A stretch of 64,000 nt of DNA, taken from contig CAMBFG010000001.1 in NCBI GenBank assembly GCA_945865925.1, positions 142,854 to 206,853 on the forward strand. Reading direction: 5' to 3'. The notes beneath the pieces are model-generated. The model did not search any database, was not told the origin of the DNA, and saw nothing but the letters and a program-made list of their open reading frames with translations. The position numbers and the translations under genes are program-made. Shown here piece by piece: positions 16,007-40,634 of the stretch; within the stretch, counting starts at the first letter, position 1, and each line of letters begins with the position of its first letter. The DNA comes from Dehalococcoides mccartyi. Lineage in GTDB: Bacteria; Chloroflexota; Dehalococcoidia; UBA2979.

Positions 16007-16082
16007 GCCGAGGTAGCTCAGTTGGTAGAGCACGCGACTGAAAATCGCGTGGTCGCCGGTTCAAGTCCGGCCCTCGGCACCA
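16007..16082 (+). tRNA. tRNA-Phe (anticodon GAA), CCA encoded
   Basis: Hand-folded cloverleaf: 7-bp acceptor GCCGAGG/CCUCGGC, D-arm GCUCAGUUGGUAGAGC, anticodon loop CUGAAAA, T-arm GCCGGTTCAAGTCCGGC, discriminator A + CCA. Confidence 0.9.
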
Positions 16083-22729: not shown

Positions 22730-23356
22730 GTGGAGGACGGAGTTCCGATGCTGGATCGAGGCCTCGCAACCAGTGTGCTGATCGGCTGGCCGGGCGGAAG
22801 CCTGGAGTCGGCGATCCGCCTCTTAGCGTTCCTGTTCGGCTCCTACTTCCTCATCATGTGGCTCGCCTCGATCGCCTGGGTGTACCGCGACGTGCGCCAG
22901 CGCACTGACGATATGGCGACGCAGATCGTCGCAATCGCCATCGCGGTGGTGTTCCCGATCGCCGGACTCCCGGTGTACCTCGTACTGCGCCCGCGCGAGA
23001 CGCTGCAGGACTCCTACGACCGGCAACTTGAGGAGAACGTGATCCTCACGGAACTCCACAACCAGAATGTCTGCCCCAACTGTCGTCGCCCAGCCCAGCC
23101 TGACTTCGTCGTGTGCGCGCACTGCGCAACGGCGCTGAAGCAGGCCTGCCAGCAGTGCGGCCGGCTGCTCCACGTGCAATGGCGACACTGCCCGTACTGC
23201 GCTGCACCGCGCGTCACCGCACGCCCCCGCAGCGAGATCGAGGGCGACCCGCCTCGGCTGCGTCGCACGGCCCCGGCCGCCGTCGTCGACGACGACGAGC
23301 CGCGCTCACGGGCGACTCGTGCCCAACGCTTCGACGAGGTGGACGAGCGGGACTAG
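22730..23356 (+). CDS. membrane protein with double zinc-ribbon (4x CxxC)
   Basis: Two TM helices then CPNC...CAHC...CQQC...CPYC. Confidence 0.55.
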   Translation: MEDGVPMLDRGLATSVLIGWPGGSLESAIRLLAFLFGSYFLIMWLASIAWVYRDVRQRTDDMATQIVAIAIAVVFPIAGLPVYLVLRPRETLQDSYDRQLEENVILTELHNQNVCPNCRRPAQPDFVVCAHCATALKQACQQCGRLLHVQWRHCPYCAAPRVTARPRSEIEGDPPRLRRTAPAAVVDDDEPRSRATRAQRFDEVDERD

Positions 23357-34245: not shown

Positions 34246-34428
34246 CCTCGACTCAATCCGCCTCCGACGTATACTCGATGCTGTCGACCCCACCGGTGCG
34301 GCCGGTCGGGCCCGAGACGATTCCTCCCCACGTGACCCAGATTCGGCGGCTCGCCCGCCGCATCGCCGGTGCCGCCGGGGATGGTGCTGTTGCCCGCGAA
34401 CGGCCCGCGAGTGGAAGGTGCGCCTCAG

Positions 34429-37152
34429 ATGACCACCACGACCAAGGAGAGCGACGCTCCGCGCCTCAGCGAGCGGATGGTCTACTTCTTCGGCAAGGGT
34501 CAGTCGTCGGACGGGCGCGGGCTGCGCGACCTCCTGGGCGGCAAGGGCGTGGGCCTCGCGGAGATGTCCAGCCTCGGCATCCCGGTGCCGCCGGGCTTCA
34601 CCATCACCACCGAGGTGTGCAACGCGTTCTACGCGCTCGGACGGAAATACCCGGACGGCCTCGAACCCCAGGTGCTCGAGGGGCTGCGCCAGATCGAGGA
34701 GCAGGTGGGAGCGACCTTCGGGGACGCCGACAACCCGCTGCTGGTCTCCGTACGTTCCGGCGCCCGCGTGTCGATGCCCGGCATGATGGACACCATCCTC
34801 AACCTCGGCCTGAACGACGTCACGGCAGCCGGCCTTGCGAAGCGCTCCGGCAACGAGCGCTTCGTCTTCGACTCCTACCGTCGCTTCGTGCAGATGTACG
34901 GGGACGTAGTCCTCGGCGTCGGCAAGGCAAGCGACACCGACCACGACCCGTTCGAGGTGCTGCTGACCGCGAAGAAGAAGGCGCGCGGCGTCGCCGTGGA
35001 CACTGACCTCGACGCGGCGGCGCTCAAGGAGCTCGTCGCGGAGTTCAAGGCGCTCGTGCTGGAGCGCACGGGCAGCCCGTTCCCGGAAGATCCGAAGGTG
35101 CAGTTGTGGGGCGCCATCGGCGCCGTGTTCAACTCCTGGGAGACCCCTCGGGCGTCGGTCTACCGGCAGATGCACGGCTACCCGGACACCTGGGGCACCG
35201 CCGTCAACGTGCAGGCGATGGTCTTCGGCAACCTCGGTGACGACTGCGCCACGGGCGTGCTGTTCACGCGCAACCCTTCGACGGGTGAGCGGCGCATCTT
35301 CGGCGAGTTCCTAGTGAACGCGCAGGGTGAGGACGTGGTCGCGGGAACGCGCACACCGCAGCCGATCCTGAAGGCCGACTCGAAGCCGGGCCTGATCTCG
35401 CTCGAAGAGTCGATGCCGCAGGCGTACTCCGAGATCGCCGCCGCGTGCGAGCGGTTGGAGTCGCATTTCCGCGACATGCAGGACATCGAGTTCACCATCC
35501 AGCAGCAGCGCCTCTGGATCCTTCAGACGCGTGGCGGCAAGCGCTCCGGCGCCGCGATGGTGAAGGTCGCCGTCGACATGGTGGACGAGGCGCTGATCTC
35601 GAAGCGGGAGGCGCTGCTGCGTCTTGACCCGGAGCAACTCGACGAGCTGCTGCACCCGGTCTTCCAGCCCGGTAGCAAGCGCGAAGTGATCGCGACCGGC
35701 CTCGGCGCGTCGCCCGGAGCCTCCGTCGGCAAGGTCGTATTCACGCCCGGTGACGCCGTGCAGTGGGCCGCGCGCGGCGAGGACGTCATCCTCGTGCGCG
35801 ACGAGACCAGCCCGGAGGACATCGAGGGGATGAAGGACGCGCAGGCGATCCTGACGGCACGCGGCGGGATGACATCGCACGCGGCGGTCGTGGCGCGCGG
35901 CATGGGCAAATGCTGCGTCACCGGCTGTTCGTCCCTCGAGATCGACTACGCGCACCGCGAGTTCACCGTGGACGTGCCGGGCAAGGGCCGCGTGATCGTG
36001 CGCGAGGGCGACGTGCTCTCGATCGACGGCACCACGGGCGAGGTCATGCTGGGCGCCCTGCCGCTCGAGGCGCCCTCGTTCCCGCCGGAGTACGACCGGC
36101 TGATGGGCTGGGTAGACGAGGAGCGCCGTCTGCGCGTGCGCGCCAACGCCGACACGCCCGAGGACGCCGAGCGCGCGCGCTCGTTCGGCGCGGAGGGCAT
36201 CGGCCTCTGCCGCACGGAGCACATGTTCTTCGGCGCGGACCGTATCCTGGCCGTGCGCCAGATGATCCTGTCGCAGACCGAGGAGGAGCGCCGCGCCGCG
36301 CTCGCGAAGATCCTCCCGTACCAGCGCGAAGACTTCGCGGGCATCCTGCGTGCGATGTCGCCGTTCCCGGTGACGATCCGCCTGCTCGACCCGCCGTTGC
36401 ACGAATTCCTCCCGCACACCGCGACCGAGATCGCCGAACTCGCCCAGGCGCTCAACCTGCGCGTGGCCGAGGTAGAGCGACGCGTCGAGGGCTTGCGTGA
36501 GGCGAACCCGATGCTCGGCCACCGCGGGGTCCGTCTCGCGATCACGTACCCGGAGATCTACGAGATCCAGGTGCGCGCGATCATGGAGGCCGCCTGTGCC
36601 CTCAAGAAGGAGGGCATCGACGTCCACCCCGAGATCATGATCCCGCTCGTGGGTGTCGAGGCCGAGCTGTCAGAGCTGCGTGCCCTCACCATCAAGACCG
36701 TCGAACAGGTGCAGCAAGAATGCGGCACGGAGGTCGCGTACACGGTCGGCACGATGATCGAGTTGCCCCGGGCGTGCATGGTCGCCGACCGGATCGCGCT
36801 GCACGCGGACTTCTTCTCGTTCGGCACGAACGACCTGACGCAGACGACCTTCGGCCTCTCGCGTGACGACGCAGGCCGCTTCCTGCCGTCCTACCTGAAG
36901 CAGCACATCCTCGAGCGAGACCCGTTCGTCGAACTCGACCGCGAGGGCGTCGGCGGCCTGATCCGCCTCGCGATCGAGAAGGGCCGGACGACGAAGCCCG
37001 GCCTGAAGGTCGGCATCTGCGGCGAGCACGGCGGCAACCCGCCCAGCGTCCACTTCTGCCACGAAGCCGGCCTCGACTATGTGTCGTGCTCGCCGTACCG
37101 CGTACCGATCGCGCGCCTCGCGGCGGCCCAGGCGGCACTCGCTCAGGGGTAG
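34429..37152 (+). CDS. ppdK: pyruvate, phosphate dikinase
   Basis: N-terminal ATP-grasp, phospho-His domain (TSHAAVVARGMGKCCV), C-terminal PEP-utilising TIM barrel. ATG at 34429 preceded by GGAAGG. Confidence 0.9.
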   Translation: MTTTTKESDAPRLSERMVYFFGKGQSSDGRGLRDLLGGKGVGLAEMSSLGIPVPPGFTITTEVCNAFYALGRKYPDGLEPQVLEGLRQIEEQVGATFGDADNPLLVSVRSGARVSMPGMMDTILNLGLNDVTAAGLAKRSGNERFVFDSYRRFVQMYGDVVLGVGKASDTDHDPFEVLLTAKKKARGVAVDTDLDAAALKELVAEFKALVLERTGSPFPEDPKVQLWGAIGAVFNSWETPRASVYRQMHGYPDTWGTAVNVQAMVFGNLGDDCATGVLFTRNPSTGERRIFGEFLVNAQGEDVVAGTRTPQPILKADSKPGLISLEESMPQAYSEIAAACERLESHFRDMQDIEFTIQQQRLWILQTRGGKRSGAAMVKVAVDMVDEALISKREALLRLDPEQLDELLHPVFQPGSKREVIATGLGASPGASVGKVVFTPGDAVQWAARGEDVILVRDETSPEDIEGMKDAQAILTARGGMTSHAAVVARGMGKCCVTGCSSLEIDYAHREFTVDVPGKGRVIVREGDVLSIDGTTGEVMLGALPLEAPSFPPEYDRLMGWVDEERRLRVRANADTPEDAERARSFGAEGIGLCRTEHMFFGADRILAVRQMILSQTEEERRAALAKILPYQREDFAGILRAMSPFPVTIRLLDPPLHEFLPHTATEIAELAQALNLRVAEVERRVEGLREANPMLGHRGVRLAITYPEIYEIQVRAIMEAACALKKEGIDVHPEIMIPLVGVEAELSELRALTIKTVEQVQQECGTEVAYTVGTMIELPRACMVADRIALHADFFSFGTNDLTQTTFGLSRDDAGRFLPSYLKQHILERDPFVELDREGVGGLIRLAIEKGRTTKPGLKVGICGEHGGNPPSVHFCHEAGLDYVSCSPYRVPIARLAAAQAALAQG

Positions 37153-37173
37153 GTCAGTTCAGATCAAACGAAA

Positions 37174-37199
37174 CAGGCGCCGATCTTTCTCGGCGCCTG
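37174..37199. terminator. bidirectional terminator-like hairpin after ppdK
   Basis: CAGGCGCCGA-TCTTTC-TCGGCGCCTG, a perfect 10-bp stem, between the ppdK stop (37152) and the convergent gene stop (37225). Confidence 0.5.
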
Positions 37200-37224
37200 C
37201 TTCGTACTCGTGGAACGATCTCGA

Positions 37225-37509
37225 CTACCGCGCCAGCACCGGCTCGTCGACCTCGCGGAGCATGCGCTCGACGGTGGCGAGACGCTGCTCGACTTCCTCG
37301 AGGCGCGTGAGGGCCTGGGCGGTCTCGCGCTGGGCTGTCGCAAGTTCATCGGCGAGCCGGCGCTGCTCTCGCAGTTCCGCAAGCGTCGCGTTGGTCCGCG
37401 TGCGTTCCCGCATGATCAGCATGACCTGACGCGCCAGGACGGTGAACACGATCGCGAGGATCGCGAAACCCGTCATCGCGAAGATCATTCCTGCCAACTC
37501 GTGGTTCAT
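37225..37509 (-). CDS. small membrane protein with C-terminal coiled coil
   Basis: One TM helix (MIFAMTGFAILAIVFTVLA) then a heptad-like Glu/Arg/Leu-rich segment. 10 nt downstream of the ArsR gene. Confidence 0.5.
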   Translation of the reverse strand: MNHELAGMIFAMTGFAILAIVFTVLARQVMLIMRERTRTNATLAELREQRRLADELATAQRETAQALTRLEEVEQRLATVERMLREVDEPVLAR

Positions 37510-37519
37510 CGATGTACCC

Positions 37520-37882
37520 CTAACTGTCCGTGTTCGTGCCCGTGGTGAGTCCGGCGCGCACCGCTGTTGCTACGACCTCGGGGGTGAGGTGCAAGGCGAA
37601 GGGCGTGGTAGCCACGTACCGCATCGCCTTGCCGTCTTCCGAGATCTCCATGCTGCTCCGCACGAGCCCGGCGGCTTCCAGCCGCTGAAGGTGCATGTGG
37701 AGCAGCGGCCGTCCGATCTGGAGGTCGCGCGCCAGCTGGCTCACGTAGTTCCGGCCGCCCGCGATCGCCTCGACGATGCGGAGCCGGTGCGGATGAGCCA
37801 GGGCCGTGAGCACGCGCAGCAGTCCGTCTCCATCCAGGGAGGCTCGGGCGGGATCTGCCGGTGCGTGGCTCACGTCGACCAT
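37520..37882 (-). CDS. ArsR/SmtB-family transcriptional regulator
   Basis: Winged-helix segment LRVLTALAHPHRLRIVEAIAGGRNYVSQLARDLQIGRPLLHMHLQRLEAAGLV. Confidence 0.8.
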   Translation of the reverse strand: MVDVSHAPADPARASLDGDGLLRVLTALAHPHRLRIVEAIAGGRNYVSQLARDLQIGRPLLHMHLQRLEAAGLVRSSMEISEDGKAMRYVATTPFALHLTPEVVATAVRAGLTTGTNTDS

Positions 37883-37918
37883 GTGTCAGAACATACTGAC
37901 ACATGACGACTCTGTCAA
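37880..37918 (-). promoter_or_regulatory. sigma-70-like promoter (TTGACA-17-TATGTT) with overlapping 10-6-10 perfect palindrome, leaderless start
   Basis: Minus strand reads TTGACA gagtcgtcatgtgtcag TATGTT ctgacac ATG. Palindrome CATGTGTCAG-aacata-CTGACACATG (37880-37905) brackets the -10 and includes the start codon. Confidence 0.65.
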
Positions 37919-37928
37919 TCATCGATGA

Positions 37929-38645
37929 CTAGCGGGGAGCCCTCGCGTCCGCGCAGGCGGCGGAGACGGCGGCCAGGGCACGGTCGGCGGGGCCCCAGGA
38001 GTTCGCACGGGCGAACTGCATCGCGACGGTGGTGCCGGTCAGACACTCGTTGAGGGACTGGATGCGCTGTTCGGCGCGAGTGGTGGCTTCCTTCGCGGCC
38101 TTCGCCTCCGCTGCGGCCTTCGTGACCTGCTCACGCAGGCCCTTCGCCTCAGTCTCGGCAGCGGTCGCGCGGGCCTCCACCTCCGCCTGAGTGCGTCCTC
38201 GGGCGGCTTCGAGGTCCTTCAGGCGCTGCTGCGTGGCGTCGAGGGCGGTCTGCAGTTCTACCTGCTTCGCGCCACTGGCAGCAGCCGAGGACTGCGCCGC
38301 TGCCAGTTCGGACTCGGAGGCGCCACTGGGCATCGTCACCAGGATCAGCGCGATGAGCGCGATGAGGGCCGCGCTCCCGATGACACCGAGCACCCTTCCG
38401 GACGGCCGGTCGAGATGTGGTACGCGCGAGAGATTGGGTACGTGAGGCCGCGCAGATGTCCGCGATGGGCGGGGCACGGCCAGTCGCAGGCCTCGCGCCT
38501 GTGTGAGCACACCGACGGCGGCGGCACGGCTGCGCTCGACCGCTTGTTCGAGGCCGTTGGGACGTCCGAGCGGAGATGCTGCACCACAGAAATCGCATTC
38601 AGCGCGCAACGGGTGCAACGGTCGGCCACATTCTGCACATTTCAT
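37929..38645 (-). CDS. zinc-ribbon / TM / coiled-coil protein
   Basis: N-terminal CAEC...CDFC zinc ribbon, central TM (VIGSAALIALIALILV), long Ala/Glu/Lys-rich coiled-coil tail. Confidence 0.55.
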   Translation of the reverse strand: MKCAECGRPLHPLRAECDFCGAASPLGRPNGLEQAVERSRAAAVGVLTQARGLRLAVPRPSRTSARPHVPNLSRVPHLDRPSGRVLGVIGSAALIALIALILVTMPSGASESELAAAQSSAAASGAKQVELQTALDATQQRLKDLEAARGRTQAEVEARATAAETEAKGLREQVTKAAAEAKAAKEATTRAEQRIQSLNECLTGTTVAMQFARANSWGPADRALAAVSAACADARAPR

Positions 38646-38734
38646 CAGGCACCTCGCTGTCTCGAGGCCAATACGGGCCTCAGAAGGACAACGACGCGAC
38701 GCCGTTCGCCGTTCCGTCCGGGCTCACAGAAATA

Positions 38735-38762
38735 GGACGGCGCCGGTTGCCCGACGCCGTCC
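38735..38762 (-). terminator. intrinsic terminator-like hairpin downstream of glmS
   Basis: GGACGGCG-12-CGCCGUCC stem, followed on the minus strand by CUAUUUCUGU. Confidence 0.5.
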
Positions 38763-38795
38763 CCCCCGAAGCCGCACGGGCTCTGGTGCGCGTGG

Positions 38796-40634
38796 CTACT
38801 CCACGACGACGGTCTTGGCGAGGTTCCGCGGCTGGTCCACATCAGCACCGCGTTCGGTGGCGATGTAGTACGAGAGCAATTGCAGCGGTACGACGCTGAC
38901 GAGTGGGGCAAGGCACGAGTCGACCTCGGGCAGTTCGACGACCTCGGACGCGATGGCGTCCAGCGAGTGATCGCCGTGCGAGACCATCGCGATCACCTCA
39001 CCACGACGGGCGCGCACCTGCTCGATGTTCGAGCGCATCTTGTCGAACACCTCGTCACGTGGGGCGATCGCGAGGGTGGGCATGCGCTCATCGATCAGTG
39101 CGATCGGACCATGCTTCATCTCGCCGGCCGCGTAGCCCTCGGCATGGATGTAGGAGACTTCCTTCAACTTCAGCGCGCCTTCGAGGGCGATCGGGTAGCC
39201 GAGGCCGCGCCCGAGAAAGAGGAAGTTCTCCACCTGCGCATACCTCGTCGCGATCGTCTCGATGTGGCCGGCGGTCTCGAGGGCTTCGCCAATGGCGCGG
39301 GGCAACCGGAGGGCCGAACGCACCTGCTCCGCCTCGACCTCGGGGTCGAGCGTGCCGCGCAGGCGGCCGAGGTAGAGCGAGAGACCGTGCAGCAGCAGCA
39401 TGCTCGCGAGCATCGTCTTGGTGGACGCGACGGCGATCTCCGGGCCGACGCGCATGAGCAGCGTGCCGTCCGCGACTCGGGTGGTCTGGGCGCCCGGGGT
39501 GTTGCAGATGGTGATCTGCGGACAGCCGGCACGCTTCGCCTCGTCCATGGCGGCGAGCGTGTCGACGGTCTCGCCAGACTGGGCGATCGAGATGACGAGG
39601 GTGTGCGGGTCGAGGATGGGACGGCGGTAACGGAACTCGGCGGCGTTATCGACCTCGGCAGGGATGCGCGCGAAGCGCTCGATGTAGTGCCGTCCGACCA
39701 TCGCGGAGTGCATCGAGGTGCCCATACCGACGAGGACGACGCGGTTGATCTGCTTCGCCCATGCGGCATCGAAGGGGACGCCGTCCGACATGTCCACGTG
39801 GCCGTCCGGGAAGTAGCGCCCGCGCATGACGTCGAGCACCGCGTCCGGCTGCTCGAAGATCTCCTTCTGCATGAAGTGCTTGTACGGGCCCTTCACGGCG
39901 GCGACCGGGTCATAGGGCAGCGTCTCCGGCGTCTTCACGAGGTCACGCCCAGCGGCATCGACGTAGCGGACGGACTCGGCGCGGATGTCCGCGAACTCGC
40001 CAGGCTCGACGAAGACGACCTGGCGCGTGTGGGGGAGCAGCGCGTTCAGGTCGGAGGCAGCGAGGTTTTCGTGCTCACCGACCCCGACGACGATCCCACC
40101 GGCGTTGCCGATGCGTGCGGCGACGAGGCGTCCCGGGTCATGCGAGTCCACCGCGATCAGCGAGTACGCCCCGGCCGCTTCCGCCACCACGGCGCGCACC
40201 GCATCGAGGAGATCCTCGCCGGACTCGATGCGGCCTGCGAGCATGTGCGCCAGCACCTCGGTATCGGTCTCGGAACGGAACACACCACGCGCGTACCTGC
40301 GGCGGAGGTCCTCGAAGTTCTCGATGATGCCGTTGTGGACGACGGCGATGCGGCCGTCCGGGTCGAGTTGCGGGTGAGCGTTGCGGTCCGCAGGTTCGCC
40401 GTGGGTGGCCCAGCGGGTGTGGCCCAGGCCGGCGACGGCCGGCGGCAGGGTGCCTTCGACGCGCTGGACGAGCGCATCGAGTTTGCCCGTGGCGTGGGCG
40501 ACGTAGAAGTCCTGGTGTGTGCCGAAGAGGGCGATACCGGCGGAGTCATAGCCGCGGTATTCGAGGCGCCGTAGTCCATCGAGGATGATGGGGCCTGCCG
40601 GGCGACTGCCCGTGTAGCCGATGATTCCACACAT
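38796..40634 (-). CDS. glmS: glutamine--fructose-6-phosphate aminotransferase
   Basis: MCGIIGY N-terminal nucleophile Cys, two SIS domains. Confidence 0.95.
   Translation of the reverse strand: MCGIIGYTGSRPAGPIILDGLRRLEYRGYDSAGIALFGTHQDFYVAHATGKLDALVQRVEGTLPPAVAGLGHTRWATHGEPADRNAHPQLDPDGRIAVVHNGIIENFEDLRRRYARGVFRSETDTEVLAHMLAGRIESGEDLLDAVRAVVAEAAGAYSLIAVDSHDPGRLVAARIGNAGGIVVGVGEHENLAASDLNALLPHTRQVVFVEPGEFADIRAESVRYVDAAGRDLVKTPETLPYDPVAAVKGPYKHFMQKEIFEQPDAVLDVMRGRYFPDGHVDMSDGVPFDAAWAKQINRVVLVGMGTSMHSAMVGRHYIERFARIPAEVDNAAEFRYRRPILDPHTLVISIAQSGETVDTLAAMDEAKRAGCPQITICNTPGAQTTRVADGTLLMRVGPEIAVASTKTMLASMLLLHGLSLYLGRLRGTLDPEVEAEQVRSALRLPRAIGEALETAGHIETIATRYAQVENFLFLGRGLGYPIALEGALKLKEVSYIHAEGYAAGEMKHGPIALIDERMPTLAIAPRDEVFDKMRSNIEQVRARRGEVIAMVSHGDHSLDAIASEVVELPEVDSCLAPLVSVVPLQLLSYYIATERGADVDQPRNLAKTVVVE

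Follow-up and report, generated by a model that had tools for sequence, protein, structure and literature searches.

An ArsR-type regulator paired with a small membrane protein, and a neighbouring zinc-ribbon gene, between glmS and ppdK of a Chloroflexota genome

Three tightly spaced genes on one strand lie between glmS and ppdK in a genome assembled for Dehalococcoides mccartyi (GTDB lineage Chloroflexota; Dehalococcoidia; UBA2979), and they raise the question of whether neighbours so arranged form one functional module. We analyzed a 64,000-nucleotide (nt) stretch of this genome, hereafter the window (GenBank assembly GCA_945865925.1, contig CAMBFG010000001.1, positions 142,854 to 206,853 of the forward strand), which has a G+C content of 69%. 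Read along the minus strand, the three genes encode a zinc-ribbon membrane protein of 238 amino acids (aa), an ArsR-type regulator of 120 aa and a small membrane protein of 94 aa, separated by gaps of 46 nt and 10 nt. A first-pass annotation of the window had taken them for a single module; the list of open reading frames (ORFs) agrees with its description of three co-directional genes and of both gaps. All three ORFs are genuine coding sequence, because of their ratios of nonsynonymous to synonymous substitution (dN/dS) against a sister species (0.145 for the 238-aa gene, 0.038 for the 120-aa gene and 0.40 for the 94-aa gene, with 0.024 for glmS) and their G+C content at third codon positions (0.76-0.85 in the three ORFs, and 0.76-0.87 with glmS included). 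The interval very probably holds two independent units rather than one module, because the zinc-ribbon gene and the pair formed by the other two genes each occur without the other. The first unit is the operon of the ArsR and 94-aa genes (37168-37918). The second is the zinc-ribbon gene, which would be functionally unconnected to the first.

Genomic distribution of the three genes

The ArsR-type regulator and the 94-aa protein constitute a conserved two-gene unit, strictly paired and translationally coupled. We examined 14 independent loci, namely those of the window species and its sister species, four reached via the small protein and eight reached via the regulator (loci are cited by our own handles, such as L006, where they have to be told apart). 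A small ORF lies directly 3' of a gene of the ArsR subfamily in every one of the 14, and the pair is found in Chloroflexota, in Actinomycetota, cultured Streptomyces included, and, on a plasmid, in Bacillota. The small protein was read intact at 12 of the 14 loci and belongs to one family throughout; one further copy is frameshifted and one was unread. A seven-sequence alignment of the small protein, used as the locus query, returned three genome loci and two metagenome loci. The loci reached in this way belong to Chloroflexota (L019), Dehalococcoidia (L020/L023), Actinomycetota (L021) and a metagenome (L022), and an ArsR homologue (56-70% identical) stands directly upstream in 4/4. The reverse approach, via the regulator, gave a small ORF directly downstream in 8/8 loci, seven of which were read, as six intact family members and one frameshifted copy. 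The small protein has 84 aa in the chromosomal Streptomyces loci L024 and L028, 100 aa in Thermomicrobiales (L025), 78 aa in Mycobacteriales (L029), 82 aa on a linear plasmid of Streptomyces clavifer (L033) and 73 aa on a Peribacillus plasmid (L032), where its C-terminal end is IEKILKEVE; the unread small ORF of the P0110 locus likewise has 84 aa, and in L031 a frameshift interrupts the small gene. The ArsR and small genes overlap by 4 nt in the NCBI/ENA contigs L024, L025, L028, L029 and L031, as well as in L030 and at the P0110 locus; in L033 the overlap is 1 nt. In the window, the Shine-Dalgarno-like sequence of the 94-aa gene, AGGGG, overlaps the ArsR stop codon.

The zinc-ribbon gene is distributed independently of this pair. 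It is absent from all 12 pair loci outside this lineage. Conversely, among the relatives, which are metagenome-assembled genomes (MAGs) labelled Chloroflexi or Chloroflexota, L007, L006 and L009 encode zinc-ribbon proteins that are 67%, 50% and 41% identical to that of the window and keep the order glmS, zinc-ribbon gene, ppdK with the ArsR/94-aa pair absent. The wider synteny in relatives reads xseAB, a purN-like gene, rluB, cmk, plsC, glmS, the zinc-ribbon gene and ppdK. In L007 the zinc-ribbon gene abuts ppdK, with 3 nt between the stop codons, and in L006 an unrelated 253-aa ORF follows it in the slot of the ArsR pair. We found all three genes together in the window species and one sister species only, with identities between the two of 91% for the zinc-ribbon protein, 98% for the regulator and 69% for the 94-aa protein. 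The single module of the first-pass annotation is contradicted by the neighborhood comparison that it had itself proposed: beyond the closest relatives the three genes are not co-located, since the zinc-ribbon gene occurs without the pair at three loci and the pair without the zinc-ribbon gene at 12. Because the pair lies near glmS (L019) or near ppdK (L020) elsewhere in the Chloroflexota, it may be the older resident of the glmS-ppdK neighborhood; the zinc-ribbon gene may then be a lineage-specific addition, and L006 and L007 may have lost the pair.

Several features of these loci stand apart from the pairing itself. The 253-aa ORF of L006 (6629-7390) shares 20 nt with the end of the zinc-ribbon gene and encodes an Arg-rich N-terminus and one transmembrane (TM) helix, with no Pfam match recorded. 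In chromosomal Actinomycetota, an MMPL-family transporter gene comes directly after the pair (L021 5386-7698, L024 3874-5994, L028 3814-5928), and a glutamine-synthetase-family gene lies divergently upstream of it in L024 and L028; in L029 and on the S. clavifer plasmid L033, no MMPL gene follows the pair. The Dehalococcoidia MAG L020 has a second small ORF (1815-2072, 85 aa) right after its 98-aa family member, which encodes an N-terminal TM helix and an Arg/Glu-rich helix without the ERMLREVD motif and may be a degenerate paralogue. In the split gene of L031 (3366-3730 on a 1.28-Mb contig), the sequence passes into the next reading frame between the TM part and EEAYRKLAEE...IEKMLREVE; this copy may be a pseudogene, or the break an error of long-read assembly.

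The regulator, its predicted operator and the small protein

The 120-aa protein is a winged helix of the ArsR/SmtB family, by both family helix-turn-helix (HTH) models and fold, in agreement with its first identification as an ArsR regulator. It matches Pfam HTH_5 (ArsR) at 41.6 bits (cut-off 22, E 1.1e-10) and HTH_20 at 38.3 bits (cut-off 27). The AlphaFold model, with a mean predicted local distance difference test score (pLDDT) of 84, contains helices α1-α4, a β wing and α5 (helices at residues 18-28, 31-41, 47-54, 58-70 and 101-109; strands at 74-80 and 86-92), and disordered tails flank this minimal winged helix. Among structures in the PDB, 36 of ArsR type match the model at E <= 1e-3. 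The top solved match is Pyrococcus Phr (2p4w), characterized by a root-mean-square deviation of 1.9 Å over 86 residues and 31% identity, and the same entry is the top PDB match of the sequence (E 1.1e-5). Homologues that are 56-74% identical occur in Streptomyces, Thermomicrobiales and Dehalococcoidia, and the subfamily comprises 3,489 clusters at E <= 1e-15, many of them 65-74% identical and including cultured Streptomyces.

The regulator appears to be a repressor without a recognisable sensory site, because it contains no Cys, lacks the α3N and α5 metal ligands (as judged for the α5 motif from a 30-sequence subfamily alignment) and scores below the cut-off of the NCBIfam metalloregulator model NF033788 (45.8 bits against 55, E 4e-12). 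Its conserved His62 and His64 sit in the recognition helix, and the subfamily alignment and the model contain no conserved candidate ligand site apart from DNA-binding and dimer elements. The remaining NCBIfam models considered also score below their cut-offs, at 34.8 bits against 150 for CmtR (E 1.2e-8), 23.8 against 100 for SdpR (NF033789) and 23.9 against 320 for Phr, with BigR likewise under its cut-off; Pfam PadR gives E 0.11.

Inspection of the 46-nt gap after the zinc-ribbon gene predicts a promoter belonging to the ArsR/94-aa pair itself. The arrangement TTGACA-17-TATGTT matches the consensus at 10 of 12 positions, where shuffled sequences would be expected to yield 0.1 such sites, and it is the sole sigma-70-like promoter in the 2.1 kb scanned. 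Its -10 hexamer is bracketed by a perfect palindrome, the predicted ArsR operator, which runs into the start codon (Table 1). Since the ATG stands 7 nt past the -10 hexamer and no Shine-Dalgarno sequence precedes the ArsR gene, we consider it reasonably likely that the ArsR mRNA is leaderless, with transcription starting at, or about 1 base from, the A of the ATG. The palindrome core, TGTCAG-N6-CTGACA, has exactly one copy in the 64-kb window. Near-identical sites occupy the same position in L019, L020, L024 and L028 (0-1 mismatch) and in L025, L029 and L031 (2 mismatches), and TTGACA or a close variant lies upstream of the ArsR homologues of L010, L019, L020, L025, L029 and L031. In L010, L019 and L020, TGTCAG-N6-CTGACA is followed by C or T and then by ATG; the L025 palindrome reads GTAAG-N6-CTTAC, with close variants in L029 and L031; and the low-GC Peribacillus plasmid L032 has the AT-rich TGTAAT-aaaatt-ATTACAT, then ATG. 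The layout of a palindrome around the -10 hexamer and then the start codon thus recurs in several Chloroflexota, one actinobacterial MAG and the Bacillota plasmid. A second site, TGTCAG-N6-TTGACA, overlaps the -35 hexamer in L020, L024 and L028. In the related loci, operator matches with at most one mismatch are found solely upstream of the ArsR gene, and there are no extra operator sites in the window or next to the MMPL genes. Autorepression at the palindrome is the most economical reading of this pattern, and we regard it as likely.

The 94-aa protein has a single hydrophobic segment (residues 8-26) followed by an amphipathic helix rich in Ala, Leu, Arg and Glu, with hydrophobic residues spaced 3-4 apart. 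No Lys or Arg precedes the TM helix and four follow it, so that by the positive-inside rule the short N-terminus is predicted to be outside and the helical C-terminus cytoplasmic, which would place the helix in the same compartment as the repressor. An exhaustive HMMER search with this protein among 1.84 billion proteins found 13 representative clusters, each of 91-100 aa, against 2 clusters only in a word-indexed search. Family members have 73-101 aa overall; in them, an N-terminal TM helix is followed by an (E/D)YRxLAE motif, then by a helical stretch that varies, and finally by the C-terminal motif (V/I/M)E(R/K)(M/I/L)(L/M)RE(V/I)(D/E); the window copy has EQRRLADE, of EYRxLAE type, and VERMLREVDEPVLAR at the C-terminus. 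In the alignments, the two cytoplasmic motifs are better conserved than the membrane segment, and this points to a partner for the small protein in the cytoplasm. Within the 94-aa gene, dN/dS is 0.44 for the TM/juxtamembrane half and 0.14 for the C-terminal 37 aa. The TM/juxtamembrane half is also a local divergence hotspot, and possibly a recombination patch: over codons 1-57 (37339-37509, compared with 6001-6171 of L010, the sister species) the synonymous divergence dS is 0.77 and the nonsynonymous dN 0.34, with dS at about 0.2 in the adjacent ArsR gene and glmS and at 0.28 in the C-terminal 37 codons.

RefSeq calls the small protein 'hypothetical protein' in both annotated records examined, and the family reaches the threshold of no Pfam, NCBIfam or PDB family (20 members were scanned with Pfam and NCBIfam). 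DUF948 (PF06103) scores 20.9 bits on the 94-aa protein (cut-off 37.2) and matches 3/20 members, and Pfam PspB (PF06667) gives 11.6 bits (cut-off 25.6, E 0.3). Matches to two models of the phage-shock system recur below threshold, in 3/20 members for PspB (TIGR02976, best E 4.9e-5) and in 13/20 for PspC (TIGR02978, best E 9.8e-6). The window protein itself scores 17.8 bits on the PspC model, whose cut-off is 104, and aligns to model positions 35-107 only; the PspC N-terminal domain (PF04024) has no match in the family. With hhalign, EEVEQRLATVERMLR paired with KRMRERIQALESILD of Escherichia coli PspB (residues 51-65) at 44% probability over 15 columns, and the TM helix alone aligned with PspC. 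We take the likeness to PspB and PspC as a weak indication that the small protein may work like them, and not as family membership.

The zinc-ribbon protein and the layout of the interval

In the 238-aa protein, an N-terminal zinc ribbon (C3/C6 and C17/C20) is followed by a helix, a disordered Pro/Arg-rich linker and a TM helix (85-103). The CxxC...CxxC ribbon noted at first pass is borne out by its conservation, the four Cys being invariant or nearly so in 17 homologues. The first description of two single-pass membrane proteins with long Glu/Arg/Ala-rich helices likewise stands, with one hydrophobic segment in each protein. In the AlphaFold model of the 238-aa protein (pLDDT 74), one helix of about 100 residues (110-212) is succeeded by a back-folding helix (217-235). 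C201 and C231 are invariant, and the last 40 or so residues are the most conserved part of the protein. Because positive charge lies on the N-terminal side of the TM helix, the ribbon is predicted to be cytoplasmic and the long helix extracytoplasmic, where it would form a stalk of about 15 nm, if fully helical, with a two-Cys helical tip. The same rule predicts that the membrane lies between the coiled coils of the two proteins.

We found no significant match for this protein in Pfam, NCBIfam, a PDB profile search or a Foldseek search with the AlphaFold model. Coiled-coil matches (lamin, tropomyosin, SMC, TraP) were rejected as noise, none being significant, and neither were generic zinc-ribbon matches (L37e, NZF/RanBP2). 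The profile searches suggested in the first-pass annotation accordingly bring neither the 238-aa nor the 94-aa protein to the cut-off of a curated family. Homologues of the 238-aa protein fill 17 clusters only, among 5.8 billion, and all of them come from metagenomes or MAGs, as relatives of this Chloroflexota lineage. The gene directly follows glmS wherever upstream sequence is present, with or without the ArsR pair. It has a GAGGTG Shine-Dalgarno sequence 5 nt before its ATG, and the promoter scan called no promoter for it. Some gene callers start the gene at Val85 and obtain 154 aa (for example L002 1663-2127 and L011 2259-2723); this is probably a start-codon miscall that drops the zinc ribbon, and the 238-aa form is favored because the ribbon is conserved in all homologues. 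Judged by its architecture, the protein may tentatively be taken for a lineage-specific structural or signaling protein that spans the envelope. Elsewhere in the window, a 208-aa membrane protein (22730-23356, plus strand) has N-terminal hydrophobic segments followed by CPNC...CAHC and CQQC...CPYC, and matches the 238-aa protein's ribbon weakly in tblastn (E 0.04).

In its general plan, the 238-aa protein resembles a zinc-associated anti-sigma (ZAS) factor, in that a linker joins a Cys-containing zinc module at the cytoplasmic N-terminus to a single TM helix, beyond which lies an extracytoplasmic domain. Unlike a ZAS protein, however, it has CxxC...CxxC and not HxxxCxxC, and outside the membrane it consists of a single helix, about 100 residues long, that bears a helical hairpin with two Cys. 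The absence of the ZAS motif had been noted at first pass, and the closest candidate is H11...C17xxC20, where H11 stands six residues before C17 and not four. The same annotation nevertheless called the module anti-sigma-like. We rejected this assignment, as there is no HxxxCxxC motif, no zf-HC2 match in Pfam and no sigma factor gene within about 6 kb on either side.

The features of the interval are collected in Table 1. As described at first pass, hairpins bound it on the glmS side and on the ppdK side, and both fold strongly. The glmS terminator has a 13-bp stem with 10 GC pairs, then the T-run ATTTCTGT, and folds with a free energy (dG) of -30.5 kcal/mol (z -4.2). The hairpin on the ppdK side has, on the minus strand, a 16-bp stem followed by UUUCGUUUG (dG -32.9 kcal/mol, z -6.7) and also folds on the plus strand (dG -28.0 kcal/mol, z -5.2); the better U-tract is on the side of the 94-aa gene. 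An Rfam scan of the window found no glmS ribozyme or riboswitch, and none upstream of glmS. The sole Rfam match in the window is a tRNA at 16007-16079 (plus strand).

Table 1 Features of the interval between glmS and ppdK, in window coordinates.
Feature	Position	Strand	Description
ppdK	34369-37152	plus	convergent with the ArsR/94-aa operon
Bidirectional terminator hairpin	37168-37205	both	common to the ArsR/94-aa operon and ppdK
94-aa small membrane protein gene	37225-37509	minus	ORF list
120-aa ArsR-type regulator gene	37520-37882	minus	ORF list, Pfam HTH_5
ArsR start codon ATG	37880-37882	minus	last three bases of the promoter-distal arm of the palindrome
Predicted ArsR operator	37880-37905		perfect 10+10 palindrome, CATGTGTCAG-N6-CTGACACATG
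-10 hexamer TATGTT	37890-37895	minus	predicted; equals the 6-nt spacer of the palindrome
-35 hexamer TTGACA	37913-37918	minus	predicted; lies in the 46-nt gap, as part of the ArsR/94-aa promoter
238-aa zinc-ribbon gene	37929-38645	minus	ORF list
glmS intrinsic terminator hairpin	38734-38763	minus	between glmS and the zinc-ribbon gene
glmS	38796-40634	minus	

Possible function of the pair and its relation to known systems

How might a repressor that appears to have no sensor of its own be controlled by the small protein made with it? In the mechanism that we propose, a dimer of the repressor would bind the palindrome, which flanks the -10 hexamer on both sides and extends over the start site, and would shut off its own operon. 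The 94-aa membrane protein would be the sensor: a change in the state of the membrane would alter its TM and juxtamembrane segment, and its cytoplasmic motifs, EYRxLAE and ERMLREVD, would then capture the repressor at the membrane, so that repression is lifted. The newly made membrane protein would be both the output and the feedback element. We place the full chain, an autoregulated operon plus a membrane-sensor switch that titrates the repressor, just short of an even chance. Direct binding of the repressor by the membrane protein, which we propose by analogy with the systems discussed below, is tentative and has a chance somewhat under one half. More doubtful still is the most general form of the idea, a minimal transmembrane dyad in which a single-pass protein senses membrane state and captures a sensor-less repressor, as a third class beside SdpI/SdpR and HAAS/PadR. 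The membrane-tethered signaling suggested at first pass is thus plausible for the ArsR/94-aa pair and not for the three genes together.

Several observations weigh against this mechanism. If the small protein were simply a product under the regulator's control, the two genes would be just as likely to co-occur and to be translationally coupled. Some close relatives (L006 and L007) do without the pair, so that it is dispensable, and the 14 loci examined stand against 3,489 ArsR clusters at E <= 1e-15. The hhalign probabilities for PspB and PspC do not rise above 51% (44-51%, over 15-26 columns), and a common composition of TM segment plus amphipathic helix could account for the similarity. The operator arrangement also varies. 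The chromosomal Streptomyces loci (L024, L028) keep the palindrome but with a leader and a Shine-Dalgarno sequence, so leaderless expression, which the layout indicates in most loci read, is not universal across the pair loci. L021 and L033 are without the TGTCAG-N6-CTGACA palindrome and have a different inverted repeat (at about 4590-4625 in L021 and about 2440-2470 in L033, where it reads GCACCTGC-N12-GCATGTGC). The recognition helix of these two regulators reads SRALLQ(I/V)HLKKLE, compared with (G/S)RPLLHMHLQRLE in the others; this co-variation of operator and recognition helix is suggestive, not proof.

The nearest alternative makes the small protein a payload only. The repressor itself would sense a cytoplasmic cue, such as temperature, which has been proposed for archaeal Phr, or a small molecule, and the small protein would be its effector, for example a PspB-like membrane-protective protein, with no feedback. 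The regulator's nearest solved structure is indeed a heat-shock regulator, Phr (2p4w), operator sites with at most one mismatch lie solely upstream of the operon, so that the small protein is the only visible output, and co-occurrence and translational coupling fit a regulator and its target equally well. Against this explanation, the regulator is little more than a winged helix between disordered tails, in which no candidate ligand site is conserved outside the DNA-binding and dimer elements, and the small protein is conserved in its cytoplasmic motifs more than in its membrane segment, as though its partner were cytoplasmic; we consider it unlikely, while giving it real weight. If the cue were a metal or metalloid, the pair would be a conventional ArsR/SmtB sensor controlling a small membrane protein for metal tolerance. 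The Pfam HTH_5 match and the weak NCBIfam matches to the metalloregulator (4e-12) and CmtR (1.2e-8) models would fit, but all metalloregulator matches are below curated cut-offs (45.8 against 55 bits and 34.8 against 150), Cys and a conserved α3N/α5 ligand set are absent, His62 and His64 are part of the recognition helix, and the operon is without a transporter, reductase or metallothionein gene. We ruled this reading out on sequence grounds, and it is the least probable of those considered here.

The gene arrangement also recalls a toxin-antitoxin-like, addiction or immunity cassette, with the winged helix as autoregulating antitoxin and the small protein as membrane toxin or immunity factor. 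The HTH gene comes first, a small second gene follows with a 4-nt overlap and a palindromic operator lies over the promoter, as in type II systems; presence among close relatives is patchy, and some copies are plasmid-borne, one in Peribacillus next to a gene for a tyrosine recombinase and others on linear plasmids of Streptomyces. Such a cassette is nonetheless quite improbable, because the regulator is rare on plasmids (6/72,556 records) and absent from phages (0/50,697 records), is highly conserved and holds a stable chromosomal position. Its 56-74% identity across phyla is unlike fast-evolving antitoxins, and the pair sits beside glutamine-synthetase-family and MMPL genes in two Streptomyces and in the glmS-ppdK neighborhood in several Chloroflexota. 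No known toxin or defence family is matched in Pfam, NCBIfam or PADLOC, and the small protein, some 60 of whose 94 residues make up a conserved soluble helix, does not resemble a typical small pore-forming toxin. A defence or mobile-element assignment was rejected likewise: the PADLOC matches are not real ones, the regulator meeting only generic HTH regions of the Csa3/CasR models and the rest being coiled coil, with no phage match and six plasmid matches. The three-gene module, membrane-tethered or anti-sigma-like, in which the zinc-ribbon and small proteins would jointly control the regulator, draws on the co-directional genes, on the lack of a terminator between the zinc-ribbon and ArsR genes, which makes read-through possible, and on an arrangement kept in one sister species. 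It is very improbable, and even more so than the cassette. The phyletic data largely refute it, with the zinc-ribbon gene lacking the pair in L006, L007 and L009 and the pair lacking the zinc-ribbon gene in 12 loci of three phyla; the separate predicted promoter and operator in the 46-nt gap, the predicted coiled coils on opposite membrane sides and the missing ZAS motif, zf-HC2 match and sigma gene all run counter to it as well.

If the proposed membrane-sensor switch is true, the pair would be a very small and widespread signaling device (about 120 aa plus 75-100 aa plus one operator) among the membrane-to-DNA pathways that are not two-component systems, and a first function could be given to a family of small membrane proteins now named 'hypothetical protein'. 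The pair occurs in cultured, genetically tractable Streptomyces, among them strain Tu 2975 and S. clavifer NBC_00558, which makes the hypothesis directly testable. The palindrome around the -10 hexamer that ends in the start codon would be a clean natural example of leaderless-transcript repression. The locus also holds a lesson for annotation: tight spacing and a shared strand in one genome made a lineage-specific neighbor resemble part of a module, and cross-genome comparison separates the two units. We found no published description of this ArsR/small-membrane-protein pair, which is limited evidence of absence.

Among characterized systems, the SdpR/SdpI pair is similar in design. SdpR of Bacillus subtilis is an ArsR-family autorepressor, and SdpI, which acts in immunity and signal transduction, sequesters it at the membrane. 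The pair described here shares with it a non-metal regulator of the ArsR family, probably an autorepressor, whose gene immediately precedes that of a membrane protein within a single operon under its own control. The proposed logic is also shared, in that capture of the repressor by the membrane partner would switch on production of the partner itself. The partners differ in architecture: SdpI-family proteins have 3-12 TM segments (PMC2910880), whereas the 94-aa protein is a single TM helix plus a cytoplasmic helix. The regulator stays far from the SdpR model (23.8 bits against a cut-off of 100), and there is no toxin gene such as sdpC nearby. The winged-helix domain itself is closest in both sequence and structure to Phr of Pyrococcus furiosus. 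Phr, however, has 202 aa, only its residues 2-75 align, and its C-terminal half, a dimerising helical domain, is without counterpart in the 120-aa regulator. CdsR is an unrelated non-metal ArsR protein without a membrane partner (PMC11009283).

The small protein is best compared with the phage-shock system. There, a negative regulator is titrated by membrane sensors that are themselves small and bitopic; the sensors are PspB and PspC, and the regulator is PspA. PspB, a protein of 74 aa whose helical domain extends into the cytoplasm from a TM anchor at the N-terminus, is reported as rare outside Proteobacteria (PMC11237479). The 94-aa protein matches it in size and architecture, with the TM anchor first and the cytoplasmic helical domain after it, and its family has a consistent weak similarity to PspC (13/20 members) and PspB (3/20). 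Unlike PspC, the family is without the PspC N-terminal domain, and the window protein's 17.8 bits compare with a cut-off of 104. The partner here, moreover, is a DNA-binding winged-helix repressor and not PspA, and no PspA, PspC or PspF-type gene was found in the Pfam-annotated contigs or the two plasmid records (L019-L021 were inspected as raw ORFs only).

A further parallel is offered by the HAAS-PadR-like dyads, in which a standalone winged helix works with a membrane-linked alpha-helical transducer, in envelope-stress contexts, as a proposed alternative to two-component systems; that paper makes no mention of ArsR (PMC11237479). The strict coupling of a standalone winged-helix regulator to a membrane-linked alpha-helical partner is the same here. 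However, the regulator is of ArsR/HTH_20 type (PadR E 0.11), none of the 20 small-protein family members scanned matches the HAAS-related Pfam models (DUF1700, DUF1129 and DUF1048), and the small protein has the reversed orientation, with the TM helix first and the helices after. Set beside these systems, the conservation pattern of the pair is solid, its mechanism is one that we infer, and its theme is familiar. The dyad is a variation on a known theme, a standalone winged-helix regulator with a membrane partner, and by analogy it is a possible non-proteobacterial counterpart of PspB/C signaling.

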